Source: Lutibacter sp.
GTDB taxonomy: Bacteria > Bacteroidota > Bacteroidia > Flavobacteriales > Flavobacteriaceae
DNA length: 64,000 nucleotides
NCBI RefSeq assembly: GCF_016342705.1
Contig: NZ_JAEINV010000006.1
Span: forward strand, 103,344 to 167,343
Reading direction: 5' to 3'
Numbering within the stretch: the first letter of the stretch is position 1; the number at the start of each line of letters is the position of its first letter. Below the pieces are notes generated by a model. The model worked only from the letters and a program-made list of their open reading frames with translations. It was not told where the DNA came from and ran no database searches. A program made the translations under genes and the position numbers. Shown here in pieces: positions 14,664-58,214 of this stretch.

Positions 14664-15359
14664 CTAACCTAAAACACTTATTTGTTCTAATTTTTTGAAG
14701 TCTAAAATTTCAATTTTTCGATCATTTACATTTAAAATTCCTTCTTTATTAAATTTAGACAAGGTATTAATTACACTTTCTTTAGAATACCCTAAGATTT
14801 CAGCCAATTCCTTTCTAACAACAGGTACCGTAAAATTTGGCGATTTATAAATTGCTGCAAAATCTAACAATAAAATAGATAAAGCTCCATCAATGTTTTT
14901 TTGAGAAAGTCTGGTCATACTATGAAAGAGTCCATTTGCAATACCAGACATGTGTTTAATTAACGCTAAGGAGAATGATCCATTGGTTTTTATAAATTTT
15001 TCAAACACATCAATTTCAATAAAACTAACTTTTGTGTTTTCCAGCGCAACAGCCGTAAAGTCGAAGTTTTTAAAAGCAAAACAACATATTAATCCAACAA
15101 AACTATGAGATTGAACCAAGCCTAAGGTTGATACTTTATGATCATTCAAAACCTCTAACTTTACCAATCCTTCTGTTACATATAATAAGTTAGTTATTAC
15201 CGCTCCTCTTTTAATTATTATTTCACCTGCATTAAATTCTAAATCTGTTTTATGTTGTACCAAAAGTTCTTTTTCTTCTTCTGATAACATATTTAAACAT
15301 TCTTTTGCATTTAAAAAATTACATTCTAATGGTGGTTTTTCTTTTAAAAAATCAGGCAT
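14664..15359 (-). CDS. Crp/Fnr family transcriptional regulator
   Basis: cNMP-binding domain plus C-terminal HTH (RKELAEILGYSKESV). Confidence 0.85.
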   Translation of the reverse strand: MPDFLKEKPPLECNFLNAKECLNMLSEEEKELLVQHKTDLEFNAGEIIIKRGAVITNLLYVTEGLVKLEVLNDHKVSTLGLVQSHSFVGLICCFAFKNFDFTAVALENTKVSFIEIDVFEKFIKTNGSFSLALIKHMSGIANGLFHSMTRLSQKNIDGALSILLLDFAAIYKSPNFTVPVVRKELAEILGYSKESVINTLSKFNKEGILNVNDRKIEILDFKKLEQISVLG

Positions 15360-15518
15360 CTTTTTTCATTTACATTCTTAGCAATGTAAAATTACATCAT
15401 ATATCATAAATAAATACATAAAACCTCATAAAATTTACTGACCACAAATTCAAGGCAAGAGCCCTATTTCATTGTAATTTTACAGTACTATTTATAAGTA
15501 TTTTTAATTCAAAAAAAA

Positions 15519-15752
15519 ATGAAAAAATTAGCCTTAAAATCAGCACTATTAATACCTACTTTTATATTTTCCACTTTTTTAATTATGACAATTGTAGGCT
15601 GTACATCTTGTCTATTTGGACTTGATCACAACTATTTTAGTTGTGCATATTGCAATATATTTAAAGTAATTACCCTAATATCCATTGTAGCGTACTTAAC
15701 CATTTTATATTTAGATATAAAATTGGTATATAAAAATTCATTTAAAAAATAA
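15519..15752 (+). CDS. Small two-TM membrane protein with CxxC motifs
   Basis: 77 aa, two hydrophobic helices, CTSC and CAYC. Confidence 0.6.
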   Translation: MKKLALKSALLIPTFIFSTFLIMTIVGCTSCLFGLDHNYFSCAYCNIFKVITLISIVAYLTILYLDIKLVYKNSFKK

Positions 15753-49287: not shown

Positions 49288-49345
49288 TTTTCAATTTTTT
49301 ATATTCATTGAATATTATAAACTTTCATATTATCCTTTTGGTATA

Positions 49346-49472
49346 TTTCCCAATAAGATTTGTGCATTTGGAAAATCGGAGATTTTTCTGCCGTAGCAAA
49401 TCGTTAGTTGAATGTTTGTCGTTAATGTTAGTTCGAATGTAAGCATAAATTATATGAGTTGTTGTGCGTAGG
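49346..49472. repeat. attC-like element E1 (left end carries a 10-nt deletion)
   Basis: 102/108 nt identical to E2; TTTCCCAATAAGATTTGTGC equals the E3 left end minus CGTGATTTTA. Confidence 0.75.
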
Positions 49473-49479
49473 TTTTATT

Positions 49480-49893
49480 CTAAATTTTTGTTTTTAATTC
49501 ATTAATTCCCTCTTTCAGCTCTCTTATAAATTTATCAATATCATCATCTGGATAAACATAATATAAAGTGCAATTATTTTCTTCACATAATTGTTTTTTC
49601 CTTTCGTCTCTTTCTTGTCCTTTTTTGAATGCGGTTTCACCTCCGAAATATTCAATTGGTTTTTGATGCTGTGTGCCTTGATATTCAATTGCAATATTTA
49701 ATTCGGGAATGAATATATCAAAATGTTGCAAACCAAGCCATTTAGGTCTTCCGTGGTGAACTACAATATAATCTTTTAGAGTCTTTTTTATTTTATAATA
49801 TAATAGAGTTTCTGATATCCAACCTTCTCCAATTTTAGGTAATTCTCTTTCTTCTCTAATTTCATCTTCGATACTTCTAATCTTAAATTTCAC
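49480..49893 (-). CDS. PD-(D/E)XK / Vsr-like nuclease domain (probably C-terminal part of a frameshifted gene)
   Basis: HFDIFIPELNIAIEYQGTQH..RDERKK..C motif; its frame stays open 22 codons upstream of the GTG. Confidence 0.6.
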   Translation of the reverse strand: MKFKIRSIEDEIREERELPKIGEGWISETLLYYKIKKTLKDYIVVHHGRPKWLGLQHFDIFIPELNIAIEYQGTQHQKPIEYFGGETAFKKGQERDERKKQLCEENNCTLYYVYPDDDIDKFIRELKEGINELKTKI

Positions 49894-50678
49894 AATTTTG
49901 AAAAGAGGCGTGTGAGTTTCAGGTAAATCAATTTTATAATATTCAAAATTTTTTTGCCTATTTTACTAGGATAAAAACAAGGCAAATCATAACTATTGTA
50001 AGTTACTGCATTATGAGTATTGTTTCTATCCACTGTGGTCATATGATGACTGTCATCACCATAAAATTCCAATTTAGAATCTGTAACTCGCCAAAGATTT
50101 TTTTTATTTTTATAATCAATCGCAACTATTTTAGGAAATAGGTCTAACAAATAGTTTAGGAATTCTTTTCTCTTAAATTCTTCAAAAGTAAATTTCTCAA
50201 TGTTTGGGAAAAATTTATAATAATATTCATAATAAATACTAAACCCAGGAAATTGAGTAGACTCAAAGTGCTTTTCTAATTTATCATAGATATTTGTACT
50301 TATGTCTTTTTTAGAGAATTTATTATACCAAGGAATTATCGAGCTAATATTTAGAGTATATAAGACTTCATTATTAATTACATTTTTATTATATTTTCTT
50401 TCGTACCAATGATAAAACAACAGATTATTAGTTTCTTGAAACTGACGGTTTAATAAAGTGTTTTCTAATATAATTTCAAAAGTGTCTTTTGTTTTAGAAT
50501 GAAGCTGATTTATTAATTTATGCTCATCTAATAGACCAAAATATTTTAATTGTGCTTTATCGATTTTTTCAATAAAATCTTCCTCTGAAATAGCTAATCT
50601 TTTAGATGAATATTTAGGATAGTAAAATCCTTCCTTTAATTTAATTTCATCAGATATTTTTTGGTAATTAGTTGTCAA
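49890..50678 (-). pseudogene. N-terminal part of probable ~400-aa frameshifted cassette gene
   Basis: One extra A in the A7 tract (T7 at 49949-49955) fuses it in frame to 49480-49893. Confidence 0.5.
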
Positions 50679-50706
50679 TTTTATTTCATTTGAGTTTTTT
50701 TAACTT

Positions 50707-50840
50707 ACGCACAACGTGATTTTATATGATTTGTGCGACTGGAAAATCGGAGATTTTTCTGCCGTAGCAAATCGCTTGTTGAATGTTTGTCGTTAATGTT
50801 AGTTCGAATGTAAGCATAAATTATATAAGTTGTTGGCAGC
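50707..50840. repeat. attC-like element E2 (intact)
   Basis: CAAC..TTATATGATTTGTGC / GCATAAATTATATAA..GTTG imperfect inverted repeat, 134 bp, 2 nt from a stop codon. Confidence 0.8.
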
Positions 50841-50842
50841 TT

Positions 50843-51712
50843 TTAATTTTCTTCTAGTTCTTTTAATGGAGTTCCATTTTCTGTAATCCATTCGGTATAT
50901 CCGTTCGAATTTCTTCCTAAAATCATATTCGATGCGGCACTTGCGCTTGAAAAAATTGTATCCTCGACAAATTCGTAAAACTCTCCGTTGTCTCTTAAAA
51001 TCTTTGTGTCTAGCAATTTTTGTCTTAAAGTTCTATAAGTTATTGTACAAGATTTTGATAAATTTTTCTTTGCTTGAGATCCTTGAGTTACAATGAAACC
51101 TTGATTGGCAATGTACATATTTGCATTTATCTTACTGCTATTTATTTTTAATAGAATTTTCTTTTGTTCTTTAGTTGGCTCTTTTTCGGTTTGTTTTACA
51201 ATTGAAGATATTAAAAATCTAAAACCCATTACAGGCAAAATCAGTTTCAATTGGTCAAGAAAATATTCCATATCTGAAATATCTGCCTCGTGTAAAGTTG
51301 GTAGTGAAGGAGTTGTGTTATTTTCGATTTCGGCTGTTCTTGAATCAATCGCTAATTGAACTAATCTTGATTCTAAATATTTGATTTGAGTTTTTGTAAG
51401 TAAATCATCTTTGCTAATAAAGAAAATTAATTCTACGAAATCTTTCTTAGAATTCTGTAAATGTTGTTTAATTCTCGTTTTAACATTTTCAGCTTCTCCG
51501 ATATATATTTTTTCTTGAAATGAATCTGAATCCGAATTACTTTTTAAACAATAAATTCCAGGATTGTCGAATTCAGGTCTGTCAATAACTTGTGAAATCA
51601 TTGTTCTCGGAGAATAGAAAGCTTTTCCTACCCAATTTCCGATTTCTGCAATTCTCGGACCATATTCAGTTCCATCTAACATAAAAATCGTTAATTTCTT
51701 TCCTCTAGCCAT
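50843..51712 (-). CDS. GIY-YIG nuclease with C-terminal DUF4357
   Basis: PGIYCL..YIGEAE..RIKQH, YLESRL; F.S.SAAS..ILGRNSNG..EW. Confidence 0.8.
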   Translation of the reverse strand: MARGKKLTIFMLDGTEYGPRIAEIGNWVGKAFYSPRTMISQVIDRPEFDNPGIYCLKSNSDSDSFQEKIYIGEAENVKTRIKQHLQNSKKDFVELIFFISKDDLLTKTQIKYLESRLVQLAIDSRTAEIENNTTPSLPTLHEADISDMEYFLDQLKLILPVMGFRFLISSIVKQTEKEPTKEQKKILLKINSSKINANMYIANQGFIVTQGSQAKKNLSKSCTITYRTLRQKLLDTKILRDNGEFYEFVEDTIFSSASAASNMILGRNSNGYTEWITENGTPLKELEEN

Positions 51713-51756
51713 TTTTTTGTTTTTGAATTTATCTTTAAAGTTACACAGTTTTTATT

Positions 51757-51891
51757 ACTCCCAACGTGATTTTATAAGATTTGTGCGACATAAAAATCGT
51801 AGATTTTTCCGCCGTAACAATATTTTTATTGAATGTTTGCTAGTTTCTGCTAGTTCCAATTTAAGCAAAAAATTTATGCGGTATTAGTAAC
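51757..51891. repeat. attC-like element E3
   Basis: CAACGTGATTTTATAAGATTTGTGCGAC..AAAATC..AGATTTT as in E2; 135 bp; right core ATTAG. Confidence 0.7.
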
Positions 51892-52082
51892 GTTATCTTT
51901 TATTCAGACTCGTAGTTTTCAATTGTTTTTAAAAGTCTATATATTTCAACAATGACCTCAATTGACTGTTTAATTTCTTTTTTATGCGCATCAAATAGAC
52001 TTATATATTACAAACATTGAATTTATGTAATGTTATATTTATAAAATTTAAGTTTATTTATTCGCAATAAATTTTTTATCAG

Positions 52083-52196
52083 TTAGAACATATCTGTTTG
52101 AAATATACTCATATTAACAAACACTGTAATAAGTACTACCCAAATTATAGTAGCTAATAAAAAACCTACTATAAAACTAATCCTATTTGATTTCAT
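52083..52196 (-). CDS. 37-aa hydrophobic ORF in cassette C
   Basis: Manual translation MKSNRISFIVGFLLATIIWVVLITVFVNMSIFQTDMF; ATG 39 nt after element core. Confidence 0.35.
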   Translation of the reverse strand: MKSNRISFIVGFLLATIIWVVLITVFVNMSIFQTDMF

Positions 52197-52226
52197 TTTG
52201 TGTTTTTTTTATTTATTTTCAAAATT

Positions 52227-52362
52227 ACTTACAACATTTTTTATATGATTGGTGCTACTGGAAAATCAGAGATTTATTGGACGTAGCAAATTGTTTCTTC
52301 CAATTTTCTCAGTTCGTTATTTATATTAAATGTGAGCATAAATTTTAGTAGGTTTTGGCAAT
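52227..52362. repeat. attC-like element E4
   Basis: CAAC..TTATATGATTGGTGC..CTGGAAAATC.GAGATT..CGTAGCAAAT..GCATAAATT; 136 bp; right core TTTGG. Confidence 0.7.
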
Positions 52363-52367
52363 AGTTT

Positions 52368-52904
52368 TTACCAATCTTTCTCTTTATTAGTTGTTTTTCC
52401 AGAGACATAATTATAAAACGAAAGGGATAATTCATTCATAGTTTGTTCTAAACTTGGAACAGCATCCACATACGATTTTCGTATTACACCGTCTTTTTTA
52501 TAAAAAGTCCTGTAATCGTAAAGTACTTTTTGTCCACCGGCTATAAAAAACTGACCAACGATATATTCAAATCGATATCGACCGTCCTTAAAAGAAATTT
52601 CAATGGAATATTCCATATTATAGGAATTTTGAATTCCCATTGATTTGTACCACCAAGCATTAGAAGCAAAACCATCAATTCGAATTTTTTCGTTTTCAAT
52701 ATTTGCCTTTAAAACTTTGTTCGGATTTTTATAGGTTTCTTGAACCCAGTTGAGTGCTTTATTATAAAGTTCAGCAGTACTTATATCGTCAACTTCAATT
52801 ACAATTGGTTCGACACCGTTTGGTGTTAATTTCAATTGAGGGATTTCTTGTCCAAATGACAAGTTTGATAAAATTATTGTTACTGTTAAAAGTAAATTTT
52901 TCAT
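52368..52904 (-). CDS. DUF4468-like exported protein
   Basis: Signal peptide, ELYNKALNWV..Y.NP..V, I.I.FKDGRYR. Confidence 0.7.
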   Translation of the reverse strand: MKNLLLTVTIILSNLSFGQEIPQLKLTPNGVEPIVIEVDDISTAELYNKALNWVQETYKNPNKVLKANIENEKIRIDGFASNAWWYKSMGIQNSYNMEYSIEISFKDGRYRFEYIVGQFFIAGGQKVLYDYRTFYKKDGVIRKSYVDAVPSLEQTMNELSLSFYNYVSGKTTNKEKDW

Positions 52905-52914
52905 TTTTGTTTAT

Positions 52915-53040
52915 TTAGATTGTCATTGAACCATTTCGATAAAGGTTACTATTTTTTTTCTTTTTCCCTTCATTCAACTGGACTCTTTGTTGTTTTGTTG
53001 TTTTAGGAATCACCAATTTTGGATTTTCACTTATGCTCAT
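52915..53040 (-). CDS. 41-aa small ORF
   Basis: Manual translation MSISENPKLVIPKTTKQQRVQLNEGKKKNSNLYRNGSMTI fills the gap between two co-oriented genes. Confidence 0.3.
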   Translation of the reverse strand: MSISENPKLVIPKTTKQQRVQLNEGKKKKNSNLYRNGSMTI

Positions 53041-53078
53041 TTTATCTTTTTGTCAATTTTTATAGAGATTCAAATTGT

Positions 53079-53516
53079 TTATGGTTTTTCCCAAATTCCA
53101 TTTTCTCTTATATGGCTTTCTAAGTTTTCTGATAAAATTAATAAATCATCGTTATTCAATGATTTTACAAAACTTGATTGTGTATAAGGTCTAAAACCAA
53201 TTATTTTTTTATAATCTTCATTTTTATAAATCTCAAATACTTTTAATATATCTTCCTTCTTTATATTTGATGGGCTTATTCCTTTTAATTGAATTGTATT
53301 AGTTAAAATTAACCATACGTCATAGGCAAAAACATCTGTAAGCTTATTTGGTAAAGGTGTACTATTTTTCAATCTGTAATCATAAGTTTCAATTATACTA
53401 TTGTCAGAATTAGCAGAAGCTTTAAAATTTTCTATTTTTAATAAAATATTTTTATTAGAACAATTAATAAATAATAAACTCATCAATATTAATAGTATTA
53501 TATTTGATTTTTTCAT
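53079..53516 (-). CDS. Hypothetical lipoprotein
   Basis: MKK..hydrophobic..INC lipobox. Confidence 0.65.
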   Translation of the reverse strand: MKKSNIILLILMSLLFINCSNKNILLKIENFKASANSDNSIIETYDYRLKNSTPLPNKLTDVFAYDVWLILTNTIQLKGISPSNIKKEDILKVFEIYKNEDYKKIIGFRPYTQSSFVKSLNNDDLLILSENLESHIRENGIWEKP

Positions 53517-53560
53517 CGCATTTTATTTTAGAAAGTTTAAATTATAGTTTTTAATTTTTC

Positions 53561-53690
53561 ACATTGTTAGCAACTTCTACTAACCAAACAAAAATAACAG
53601 TTTACATATTTATAACTTTACGGTTATCCGTATTGTATACCTATTTATTCATTTTTATTTTTTTAAAACAAAACGTATGAATACGTATAA
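53561..53690 (-). promoter_or_regulatory. Putative attI/Pc-like head of the array
   Basis: Lone GTTG core at 53574-53571, TATTTTTG -7 box (53596-53589), palindromes at 53619-53632 and 53673-53686. Confidence 0.45.
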
Positions 53691-54124
53691 TTAGTAAAAA
53701 AAGAAATACACCAAAATAGTAGTGGTAAAAATTAAAGTGCAGGGTGAACCTTCTTTATGTTTTGAATGTTCATAATTTTAACGGAAAATAACATGGTACC
53801 TCAGTAAAATTTAGTACTTTTTACCTTATAAAGTTTATTTTAAAAATCTACTCCTAAAATAGTCACTTTATAAATTATCTACTATTTTTTTAAATTAGTT
53901 GTACATTTATTTTAAAGTAAATGTACATATATTTTAATAATAATTGTACAATTATTATTTACAATCACAGGTGCTTTTACAAGAAAGTACGGGTGCTTTT
54001 ATAAAAAAGACGAAGTGTTTTTGTAAAGTTTTATAAAGGCCTTTATATATTTTGCTAAAAAAGTTTCCTTATTAAACAGCAAAGCACCTAAATAACGTAT
54101 TCATAATGAGATAATAAGCTGTAT

Positions 54125-55360
54125 TTATTCAAACTTAATTGCTTTTACTGGGCTTATTTTAGATATAATAATTGTTGGAATTATAAGCATTAATAAACAT
54201 AAAATTAAAGTACCAAAATTTAAGAGGATTATATACCCAAAGTTTAAATAAATTGGTGCTTCACTTACATAATACGTTTCAGGGTTTAAGGTTATTACAC
54301 CAAAATATTTTTGAATGAATAAAATTGATAAACCTATTAAATTTCCCCAAAACAATCCTTTTACAATTAAATAAGCGGCATTGTACAAAAACACCTTTCT
54401 TATACTTACATTGCTCCCTCCTAGCGCTTTAAGAATCCCAATCATTTGGGTTCTTTCCAAAATCAGCACTAATAAGGCTGTAATCATATTAATGCCTGCA
54501 ACTAAAATCATAATTACAATTATTAAATACACATTATTATCAAAAAGGCTAATCCATTCAAAAATAGCAGGATATTTTTCAACAATACTTTCACTATTTA
54601 ATGTAGAGCCCGTTTGCATATAAATTTCGTGACTTTTAGGTATAATTTCATCAAAATCAGTAATTAACACTTCAAAACCTCCCACTTCATCATCATTCCA
54701 TCTATTCATTTTTTGAATATGTCTAATGTCACCTATTACAAAACTTTCATCAAACTCCTGAAAACCGGAATTATAAATCCCCACAATTTTTACCACACGA
54801 ATCCACGGTGCTTTTGTTGGATCATTTTTTACAAACAGAATGTTAAATTCATCTCCTAATTTCAATGCCATTCTATCAGAAATTACTTTTGATATTAACA
54901 CATCATTAGAAACTTCACTGTCATAATTGGGTAATTTTCCTTCCACTAAGTACTCTTCAAAAAAGCTCCAATCGTACTCGTTGGCCACACCTTTTAAAAT
55001 AATGCCTTCAAAATCAGTGGCAGTTCTAATAATTCCCGCTTTTGTAGCAAAAACCTGCACATTTTTAATGTTTGAAACTGTTTGAAAGGTTGGATAAAAA
55101 TCTTGTTTTTTTGAAACCGGAATTAAGGTAATTTCAGAATTATTATTATCAAAATTAGTAATTTGAACATGTCCGTTAAAACCTGCTAATTTTTCACGTA
55201 TTTTTTGTTGTAAGCCAATTCCTGTTGCAATGGCAATCATCATAATAATCATTCCTAAGGCAATTGCTATAATGGCAATTTTTATTATTGGAGATGATAT
55301 GCTACTTTTATACTTTTTAGCAGCAATAATACGTTTTGCAATAAATAATTCGTAATTCAA
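54125..55360 (-). CDS. LolC/E (FtsX-like) ABC permease
   Basis: MNYELFIAKR, ILERTQMIGILKALG, four-TM architecture. Confidence 0.88.
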   Translation of the reverse strand: MNYELFIAKRIIAAKKYKSSISSPIIKIAIIAIALGMIIMMIAIATGIGLQQKIREKLAGFNGHVQITNFDNNNSEITLIPVSKKQDFYPTFQTVSNIKNVQVFATKAGIIRTATDFEGIILKGVANEYDWSFFEEYLVEGKLPNYDSEVSNDVLISKVISDRMALKLGDEFNILFVKNDPTKAPWIRVVKIVGIYNSGFQEFDESFVIGDIRHIQKMNRWNDDEVGGFEVLITDFDEIIPKSHEIYMQTGSTLNSESIVEKYPAIFEWISLFDNNVYLIIVIMILVAGINMITALLVLILERTQMIGILKALGGSNVSIRKVFLYNAAYLIVKGLFWGNLIGLSILFIQKYFGVITLNPETYYVSEAPIYLNFGYIILLNFGTLILCLLMLIIPTIIISKISPVKAIKFE

Positions 55361-57128: not shown

Positions 57129-57261
57129 AATATCAATAATTAAATAAAAACCCAATAATTTAACCCCAAACACAAATAAATCAACCCTAATTATTTAAAC
57201 CCCAAAACCCCAAAGACAAATAAATCAACCCTAAATTTCTAAACCCCAAAACCCCTCAAAA

Positions 57262-58008: not shown

Positions 58009-58214
58009 GTTGAGTTCTAAAGTTGTCCCCACAAAAGCAGTAATTAACTGGTGTCGTTCCCACAACGGTAGTTCTAAAATAATAGAGTTTCGTTCCCACA
58101 ACGGTAGTTCTAAAAAAAAATAAAAACAAAAAAATCAAATACATCTAAAAACAACATAAGAGGAAAATTTAAGTTTAATTTTCCTCTTATTTAAAATATT
58201 TTTCTGGGTTAATT

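Follow-up and report, generated by a model that had tools for sequence, protein, structure and literature searches.

A probable decaying gene-cassette array of an integron-like capture system in Lutibacter

Between 49.3 and 53.6 kb of a 64,000-nt stretch of contig C23 (the window) from the 3.6-Mb genome of a Lutibacter sp. (Flavobacteriaceae), genes on the minus strand are separated by four copies (E0–E3) of a ∼135-nt repeat. Read in gene direction, every copy has a variable stretch running into AAC at its start and GTT running into a variable stretch at its end. How did this array come about, by recombination of mobile gene units or by dispersal of the repeat? The initial annotation, made from the window alone, had favoured recombination on the ground that the ends of the gene units complement their own partners. 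Our analysis makes it very likely that the array is a decaying, recombinase-less cassette array belonging to an integron-like gene-capture system of Bacteroidota.

The evidence that carries this reading is a complementarity that spans the cassettes. A genome scan with nhmmer placed ∼20 element copies in this genome, in co-oriented clusters on contigs C5, C6, C8, C23 and C35, and a scan of GTDB genomes for the exact core returned 281 copies at 117 loci, mostly in Lutibacter, with a minority in Polaribacter, Aureibaculum, Xanthomarina and Mariniflexile. AAC is kept in 246/265 copies and GTT in 240/256. Cassettes were delimited by consecutive profile-anchored copies less than 6 kb apart, leaving 119 after de-duplication, and for each we took the six bases after GTT at the cassette start and scored them against the six that precede AAC at the cassette end, reverse-complemented. 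These arms matched perfectly in 65/119 cassettes, with a mean of 4.36 of 6 positions, whereas the two ends of a single element matched perfectly in only 4/208 cases, with a mean of 2.20. Non-cognate pairs gave 0.8% perfect matches and a mean of 2.28, and the observed within-cassette mean was reached by 0 of 10,000 permutations. The initial annotation had expected an excess of within-cassette over within-element complementarity in a larger sample, and the larger sample shows a pronounced one.

These counts also bear on a reading in which the mobile unit would be the ∼125-nt element itself, similar to a miniature inverted-repeat transposable element or a repetitive extragenic palindrome that inserted into hairpins such as terminators, with ordinary chromosomal genes in between. 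The elements do form a dispersed, conserved intergenic repeat with inverted-repeat character, but an element of this kind predicts complementary flanks on either side of one copy, the very comparison that gave so few matches. Target-site duplications were not found, a gene and its downstream element travel together, and arrays begin at an attI-like site beside a recombinase. We therefore consider element dispersal extremely unlikely, and the proposal that recombination built the array is upheld by the arm counts together with the positions at which homology breaks.

Three independent comparisons between different contexts show homology breaking off exactly at GTT (a slash marks the break in what follows). 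The first concerns two loci (L045 and L110) that share one cassette at 96% identity between different neighbours, where the specific homology runs from CGTT/GTACAAT to ...GTTG/. In the second, cassette B of the window was found on a metagenome contig (L179) at 89% nucleotide identity; homology begins at 51766/51765, that is C/GTT, downstream of an unrelated attI-like sequence in L179, and the two diverge again past the GTT of the downstream element. The third involves three Bacteroidales metagenome contigs with the same 375-aa recombinase and the same synteny, two of which were aligned and are identical until ...GCGTATATAAACAA/GTT, after which they carry different cassettes (PEGA and MNT/HepT genes in one, MpPF26, DUF2752 and others in the other). 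Other shared cassette pairs all came from the fragmented HS1-25 assembly and were discarded as ambiguous and possibly assembly duplicates. In addition, cassette B occurs at 20–36x word depth in four metagenomes without cassette A. The breakpoints in relatives thus map to GTT, as had been predicted from the window, at a resolution that brackets the crossover to C-G-T-T-(G/A), i.e. the invariant CGTT(R). Of the original proposal that the units were once free circles inserted at G/TT, the parts that stand are the complementary arms and the breaks at GTT; the circles and the exact G/TT bond we infer from them.

The window features on which the arms and sites can be followed are given below in gene direction.

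53893..54298, minus strand: array head segment, with the 3′ end of an FtsX-like permease gene and intergenic sequence containing TGTACA palindromes
53571..53588, minus strand: candidate relic attI-like site, TTTGGTTAGTAGAA/GTTG, weak
52364..53570, minus strand: cassette D region, boundaries uncertain, with a 145-aa open reading frame (ORF; 53079-53516) and a DUF4468 protein (52368-52904)
52225..52363, minus strand: element E0, attC-like, inverse core mutated to AAA (52356-52354), GTT intact at 52235-52233
51893..52224, minus strand: cassette C body, with only a 37-codon hydrophobic ORF, arms degenerate (1/7)
51755..51892, minus strand: element E1, inverse core mutated to AAT (51885-51883), GTT at 51765-51763
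51755..51765, minus strand: cassette B 5′ arm, GTTGGGAGTAA
50843..51712, minus strand: cassette B gene, encoding a 289-aa GIY-YIG/DUF4357 protein
50832..50841, minus strand: cassette B 3′ arm, AGCTGCCAAC, the R″-like box of E2
50705..50841, minus strand: element E2, the sole fully intact site in the window, AAC at 50834-50832 and GTT at 50715-50713
50702..50715, minus strand: cassette A 5′ arm, GTTGTGCGTAAGTT
49480..50678, minus strand: cassette A coding region, two ORFs (49890-50678 and 49480-49893)
49461..49474, minus strand: cassette A 3′ arm, AACCTACGCACAAC, the reverse complement of the 5′ arm at 13/14 positions
49334..49470, minus strand: element E3, last of the array, AAC at 49463-49461, family homology ending near 49353

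Reading the window arms on the minus strand in gene direction, we found the strings quoted in the initial annotation at the coordinates given there. Cassette A, with the start GTTGTGCGTA, begins G(50715)TTGTGCGTAAGTT, and its end, AACCTACGCACAAC at 49474-49461, has the reverse complement GTTGTGCGTAGGTT, which agrees with the start except for one A versus G, a difference that is a G·T wobble on the opposite strand. All seven variable positions after GTT match (P<=0.004); over all pairings of 192 × 190 distinct arms the chance of 7/7 is 0.4%, a figure that is overstated because the true partners are included in the pairings. Cassette B starts G(51765)TTGGGAGTAAT and ends GCTGCCAAC (50840-50832), with the reverse complement GTTGGCAGC. 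Its 7/8 match was correctly reported but is not significant by itself, since four of these bases are the family-invariant GTTG/CAAC, and at the variable positions 4/7 agree (P about 0.25). The metagenomic copy of cassette B in L179 has perfect arms (GTTGGCAGC / GCTGCCAAC), and the 5′ arms of the two copies, GTTGGGAGTAA in the window and GTTGGCAGCAA in L179, differ by two point mutations, which are accordingly placed in the window copy. The two ends of E2 agree over no more than GTTG, as had been noted, with 2/7 variable positions identical. Likewise, the poor fit of cassettes C and D and the mutation of their cores (AAT and AAA in E1 and E0) were described accurately; a search for the exact complement of the E0 arm did not find a start for cassette D.

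We then analyzed the elements for the structure of a recombination site. Because the minimum-energy fold of a single sequence favours a local hairpin over the stem formed by the R and L arms, single-sequence folding was dropped as evidence for structure and covariation was used instead. Across 204 distinct copies, columns 13–28 pair with columns 106–121 to form a 16-bp L helix, in which 11 positions are Watson–Crick in 92–100% of copies and the other five are nearly always A·C or C·A on the top strand, which is G·T on the bottom strand. Compensatory changes occur at pair 14–120 (T-A to G-C, 15 copies) and pair 19–115 (A-T to T-A, 44 copies), and an asymmetric unpaired spacer offsets the R box (AAC/GTT and the arms) from the L helix. 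The sites thus have the R″-L″...L′-R′ architecture of attC, an imperfect palindrome with conserved AAC and GTT. The run of arm matches ends at position 11, which is A in 97% of R′ and C in 84% of R″, again an A·C mismatch on the top strand and a G·T wobble on the bottom strand. Positions 4–10 after GTT are variable, and the classical core consensus GTTRRRY/RYYYAAC fits only 9% of R′ and 6% of R″ boxes, with conservation confined to GTT(R).

Since all helix mismatches are A·C on top and G·T below, the ∼124-nt sites pair better as the bottom strand. Closing each site in silico with the start of its own cassette, a comparison that the initial annotation had put forward, lowered the folding energy of the bottom strand from -13.6 to -16.5 kcal/mol (p=1.6e-11), and in the circularised sites the bottom strand is favoured over the top strand (-16.5 versus -12.0 kcal/mol, p=4e-19). 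The better bottom-strand fold, the exclusively G·T mismatches and a subclass of arms with a 1-nt bulge would suit a site that may be recombined as a folded bottom strand with extrahelical bases.

The direction of the wobbles also bears on a reading at the RNA level, in which the two ends of a cistron would pair within the transcript, for example as processing or stabilising stems, and the units would not be mobile. This would suit arms that flank each gene, in arrays that are co-oriented and probably co-transcribed, but the wobble positions would turn into A·C mismatches in a sense transcript. Nor would it account for one cassette occurring in different contexts with breaks at GTT, or for strains with an identical recombinase whose cassettes differ from GTT on. 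Rfam gave no family at gathering score over the whole window, and an E-value search over the array gave one chance-level match only, the elements matching no family. We judge RNA-level pairing very improbable as an explanation of the arms.

A recombinase and an attI-like entry site are found outside the window. The best integron-integrase-like gene of the genome lies on C35, directly upstream of the array on that contig and co-oriented with it:

L009 (C35):15658-16836, minus strand: recombinase P0001, 392 aa

Its orthologues head arrays at four further loci (L086, L055, L013 and L117), and in each genome a single array begins at an attI-like .../GTT site, which lies downstream of a tyrosine recombinase gene of the same orientation. 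In all four complete Lutibacter heads this unique site consists of GTT and 6–7 bases that are the reverse complement of the end of the first cassette, and the attI-like sites share a similar preceding context, e.g. TTTGGATATAACCA/GTTG. At four Lutibacter platform loci and one Bacteroidales locus, the attI-like site adjacent to the recombinase, ...TATAAC(N)A/GTT, is followed by the arm of the first cassette.

The recombinase is neither a housekeeping Xer protein nor a classical integron integrase by the usual profiles. It falls below the NCBIfam equivalog cut-offs for XerA (218.2 versus 220), XerD (182.7 versus 329.6) and XerC (179.4 versus 335), and separate XerC/D-like housekeeping genes are present on C26 and C9. 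TIGR02249, the integron integrase model, matches in two pieces (positions 9–178 and 239–313) at 196.7 against a cut-off of 265, and the alignment to VchIntIA (2A3V) is likewise in two pieces and skips about chain residues 213–247, which are the integron-specific insertion. The catalytic residues (R, K, H, R, H and Y) do not vary among 32 homologues, and XerA is the best solved relative both by sequence and by fold. The protein also has an extra N-terminal domain of ∼95 aa that resembles the N-terminal parts of other recombinases. A small beta-alpha domain is predicted for residues 10–77 with a per-residue model confidence (pLDDT) around 90, and F28, S47 and W53 in it are invariant. The likeness to HARP domains is weaker than that to the recombinases, with weak to moderate support. 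Searched against AlphaFold DB clusters, this fold matched HARP (a bacterial HARP-domain protein), ZRANB3 and SMARCAL1 at E 3e-4 to 2e-3, and against the PDB it gave weak matches to the SMARCAL1 HARP and XPB N-terminal domains at E about 0.2. HARP domains recognise forked DNA. The predicted HARP-like domain might be a lead for how a Xer-like enzyme reads a folded site.

The affinity to XerA, together with the missing insertion, allows for a different mode of action, in which the same recombinase would carry out ordinary double-stranded Xer-type recombination at a core ...NCNC-GTT-R, the arms serving another purpose or being a by-product and no folded single strand being involved. The invariant bases around GTT could then be the overlap region, which would also place breakpoints at GTT. 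Recombination of this type needs a conserved second binding arm, yet the positions that would provide it, 4–10 after GTT, are the variable ones. It further leaves unexplained the arm complementarity within cassettes, the one-strand-only G·T at every non-Watson–Crick position, and the better bottom-strand folding that extends over the phylum. For these reasons we hold it to be improbable, if less so than the readings based on RNA pairing or element dispersal, and continue with recombination of a folded site.

How far does this arrangement reach? Full-length recombinase homologues with 38–63% identity occur in many Bacteroidota families, those in Bacteroidales metagenome-assembled genomes (MAGs) being 38–40% identical to the Lutibacter enzyme. 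We examined 20 regions downstream of such homologues, and 18 of them contain GTT-arm sequences matched by their reverse complement followed by AAC, with the next GTT ∼118–121 nt on, in chains. One flavobacterial locus (L169) has 17 consecutive cassettes whose element sequence is unrelated to that of Lutibacter. The AAC-to-GTT site length is near-constant at 122–126 nt (L159–L178, L259), though from one genus to another the elements are unrelated in sequence. Over 55 sites at 18 loci in other families, the bottom strand folds at -27.5 versus -23.7 kcal/mol for the top strand (p=8e-9) and is the more stable strand in 89%. The A/G at arm position 11 recurs outside Lutibacter, and across Bacteroidota arrays the arm takes one of two forms, 10 bp, or 9 bp with a one-base bulge.

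Taken together, these results suggest the following mechanism. A cassette would extend from the TT of one GTT core through the G of the next and would comprise one or more genes and then a ∼124-nt attC-like site, itself made of a cassette-specific arm ending in AAC, the 16-bp L helix enclosing a conserved interior, and a G at the very end. This arm has its partner at the 5′ start of the same cassette, and the two become neighbours only once the cassette is joined end to end. A dedicated tyrosine recombinase, with a Xer/IntI-like core and the N-terminal HARP-like domain but no IntI insertion, would excise cassettes as circles by recombining two sites and insert them at the attI-like .../GTT site downstream of its gene, with strand exchange in or next to GTT. 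Its substrate, like that of integron integrases, would probably be the folded bottom strand.

Several observations weigh against this picture. The arms are imperfect in about 40% of cassettes, and within the window cassette A alone is significant by itself. A local hairpin (H2), preferred by the minimum-energy fold of a single element, is in competition with the L helix for the 3′ arm of the latter. Public metagenome runs, available as contigs only, showed neither circle junctions nor excision products, and their joints are explained by multi-copy elements; metagenome-contig joints that skip ∼1,247 nt were rejected as evidence of excision because the contigs carry several elements. Lastly, IntI reads folded attC by means of an insertion that is missing from the recombinase. 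This insertion is held to be what allows recombination of folded attC hairpins, and in view of its absence here we argue for single-strand recombination from analogy and from the strand bias.

Within this system, the window array is largely fossil, as E2 is its only intact site, the cores of E0 and E1 are mutated, E3 has lost its L′/R′ end and GTT, the arm of cassette B is mutated and the gene of cassette A is broken. There is no recombinase in the window, and neither a recombinase nor a remnant of one within 52.9–55.4 kb. In relatives the flanking HAD gene is kept and the array is absent, with an element fragment left in one of them. The head segment of the window measures 406 nt, of which ∼175 nt are the end of the FtsX-like gene, and its intergenic part has CTTTTACAAGAAAGTACGGGTGCTTTT-type repeats in addition to the TGTACA palindromes. 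A second copy with 87% identity lies on C35 (L009) at 15159-15563, just downstream of the recombinase gene. The ∼320 nt below the head segment lead in both loci to a ...TTTGG.TA....../GTTG site, which in the window is the candidate relic listed above; its comparators are the attI-like sites TTTGGATATAACCA/GTTG on C35 and TTTGGTTATACTAAACC/GTTG in L179. Given the duplicated head segment and the similar site at the same distance, the window array seems, from these sequence likenesses, to keep a relic head, although the arm of the relic site (GTTG at 53574) matches the end of cassette D at only 4/7 positions. Possibly the head segment serves the array head as a regulatory or accessory region. On C35 it takes the form of a gene fragment directly after the recombinase stop. 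Elsewhere in the window, tandem repeats of 44 nt (AACCCCAAA...-rich) and 36 nt (GT(G/T)TCGTTCCCACAACGGTAGTTCTAAAA) are found at 57162-57249 and 58051-58118 and are unrelated to the cassette elements.

As for cargo, the majority of 112 Lutibacter cassette proteins have no family. Those assigned include thioredoxin/AhpC-like proteins, histidine kinases, Mrr, AbiU, AIPR, a KAP NTPase, AriA/OLD-like ATPases and Gp49. For the cassette B protein, PADLOC gives a match to the candidate phage-defence family PDC-S14 (E 1e-96). Its distant homologues (<=88% aa identity) are without flanking arms, showing that the gene family also lives outside cassettes. Metagenomes commonly contain homologues of this family (35–88% aa identity) that lie in no cassette, and the gene was accordingly recruited into a cassette or escaped from one. 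Cassette A has two ORFs of 262 aa and 137 aa that overlap at 49890-49893 and are probably one gene broken by a frameshift; its C-terminal part has a weak match to a methyl-directed restriction enzyme.

A Lutibacter sp. HS1-25 locus (L027, NZ_RHLN01000148.1) has 14 element copies in 5.4 kb at a spacing of 200–400 nt, so that many cassettes there are without an ORF, and over the whole set 24 cassettes have no ORF of at least 50 aa. One cassette on C35 (L009:10491-11743) contains an IS3-family insertion sequence with helix-turn-helix (HTH) and rve transposase ORFs, and the arms of that cassette no longer match.

Among the closest published parallels is the integron, in which crossover takes place between G and TT of GTTRRRY and the folded bottom strand is used (PMC8876359). 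Here as there, co-oriented single- or few-gene cassettes each close with an imperfect palindrome whose cores are AAC...GTT, folding favours the bottom strand, and an attI-like insertion site lies beside a tyrosine recombinase. The bases after GTT are those of the downstream cassette and pair with its own R″, as at an integron crossover, within the limits of the CGTT(R) resolution. Within a genus the sites are uniform in sequence, orphan arrays occur at scattered places of the genome, and the cargo, unknown for the most part, includes some defence and toxin genes. Vibrio arrays, with VCR sites of 123–126 nt, are an example of sedentary chromosomal integrons. The window array itself resembles a CALIN, a cluster of attC sites without an integrase (PMC4889954, PMC9024848), having four elements within 3 kb and no recombinase nearby, with elements counted by homology to their own family.

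The differences lie in the enzyme and in the core. The recombinase has no IntI insertion, reaches 197 of the 265 bits required of an integron integrase, has the additional ∼95-aa N-terminal domain and, unlike in most integrons, is co-oriented with the cassettes. The arm is 9–10 bp rather than 7 bp, GTTRRRY fits 9% of sites, the strand bias is encoded by G·T wobbles, and the site length is fixed at ∼124 nt. On sequence grounds, the system is therefore integron-like and not a classical integron, since the enzyme and the core consensus fail while the hallmarks of cassette recombination are present. With IntegronFinder 2.0, Bacteroidetes had only In0 and one complete integron and were almost integron-free (PMC9024848). 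Our analysis finds the integron-cassette signature (own-end pairing, breaks at GTT, attI-like entry and bottom-strand bias) with an insertion-less recombinase in many Bacteroidota families. If the proposed mechanism is true, integron-type gene capture evolved or diversified beyond IntI, and current detection tools miss a large pool of cassettes, including candidate phage-defence genes such as that of cassette B.

Archaeal XerA, along with XerC/D acting at dif, provides the best sequence and structure match to the core-binding and catalytic domains, and like these proteins the recombinase is a simple tyrosine recombinase with no lambda-type arm-binding domain. Unlike them, it stays below all equivalog cut-offs, has an extra N-terminal domain and, instead of serving a single dif site, heads cassette arrays.

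The other closest published parallel is the rAID-1 arrays of Bacteroidales, described as having a XerD-like recombinase, co-directional genes and intergenic repeats "reminiscent of integrons" (Ross et al., 10.1101/471110). None of the papers that we found on rAID or flavobacterial arrays describes folded or strand-biased sites, complementary arms of cassettes, or crossover at GTT; those on rAID-1 describe motifs only. We lean slightly towards a broader proposal, that Bacteroidota have a phylum-wide counterpart of the integron, in which a Xer-like recombinase has, in place of the IntI insertion, a HARP-like domain of a type that reads DNA structure, 124-nt sites fold only as the bottom strand by means of G·T wobbles, and rAID-1 arrays are one branch. 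If this is true, it offers a mechanistic model for the biogenesis of rAID-1 arrays in human gut Bacteroidales, with predicted sites and junctions. Membership of rAID-1 is defined by >44% identity to BF9343_RS08045 and by immunity cargo, whereas the Lutibacter cargo is mixed, with no immunity family among the top matches of the 112 cassette proteins, and the likeness is drawn from published descriptions. The likeness lies in a XerD-like tyrosine recombinase at the 5′ end followed by co-directional short genes with repetitive intergenic sequences. At least two co-directional genes with such intergenic sequences are present in the C35 array and in 18/20 of the loci examined across the phylum, the window array differing in having no recombinase. 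Downstream of the recombinase homologues in Bacteroidales MAGs, the same chains of GTT-arm...arm-AAC cassettes are found as in Lutibacter.

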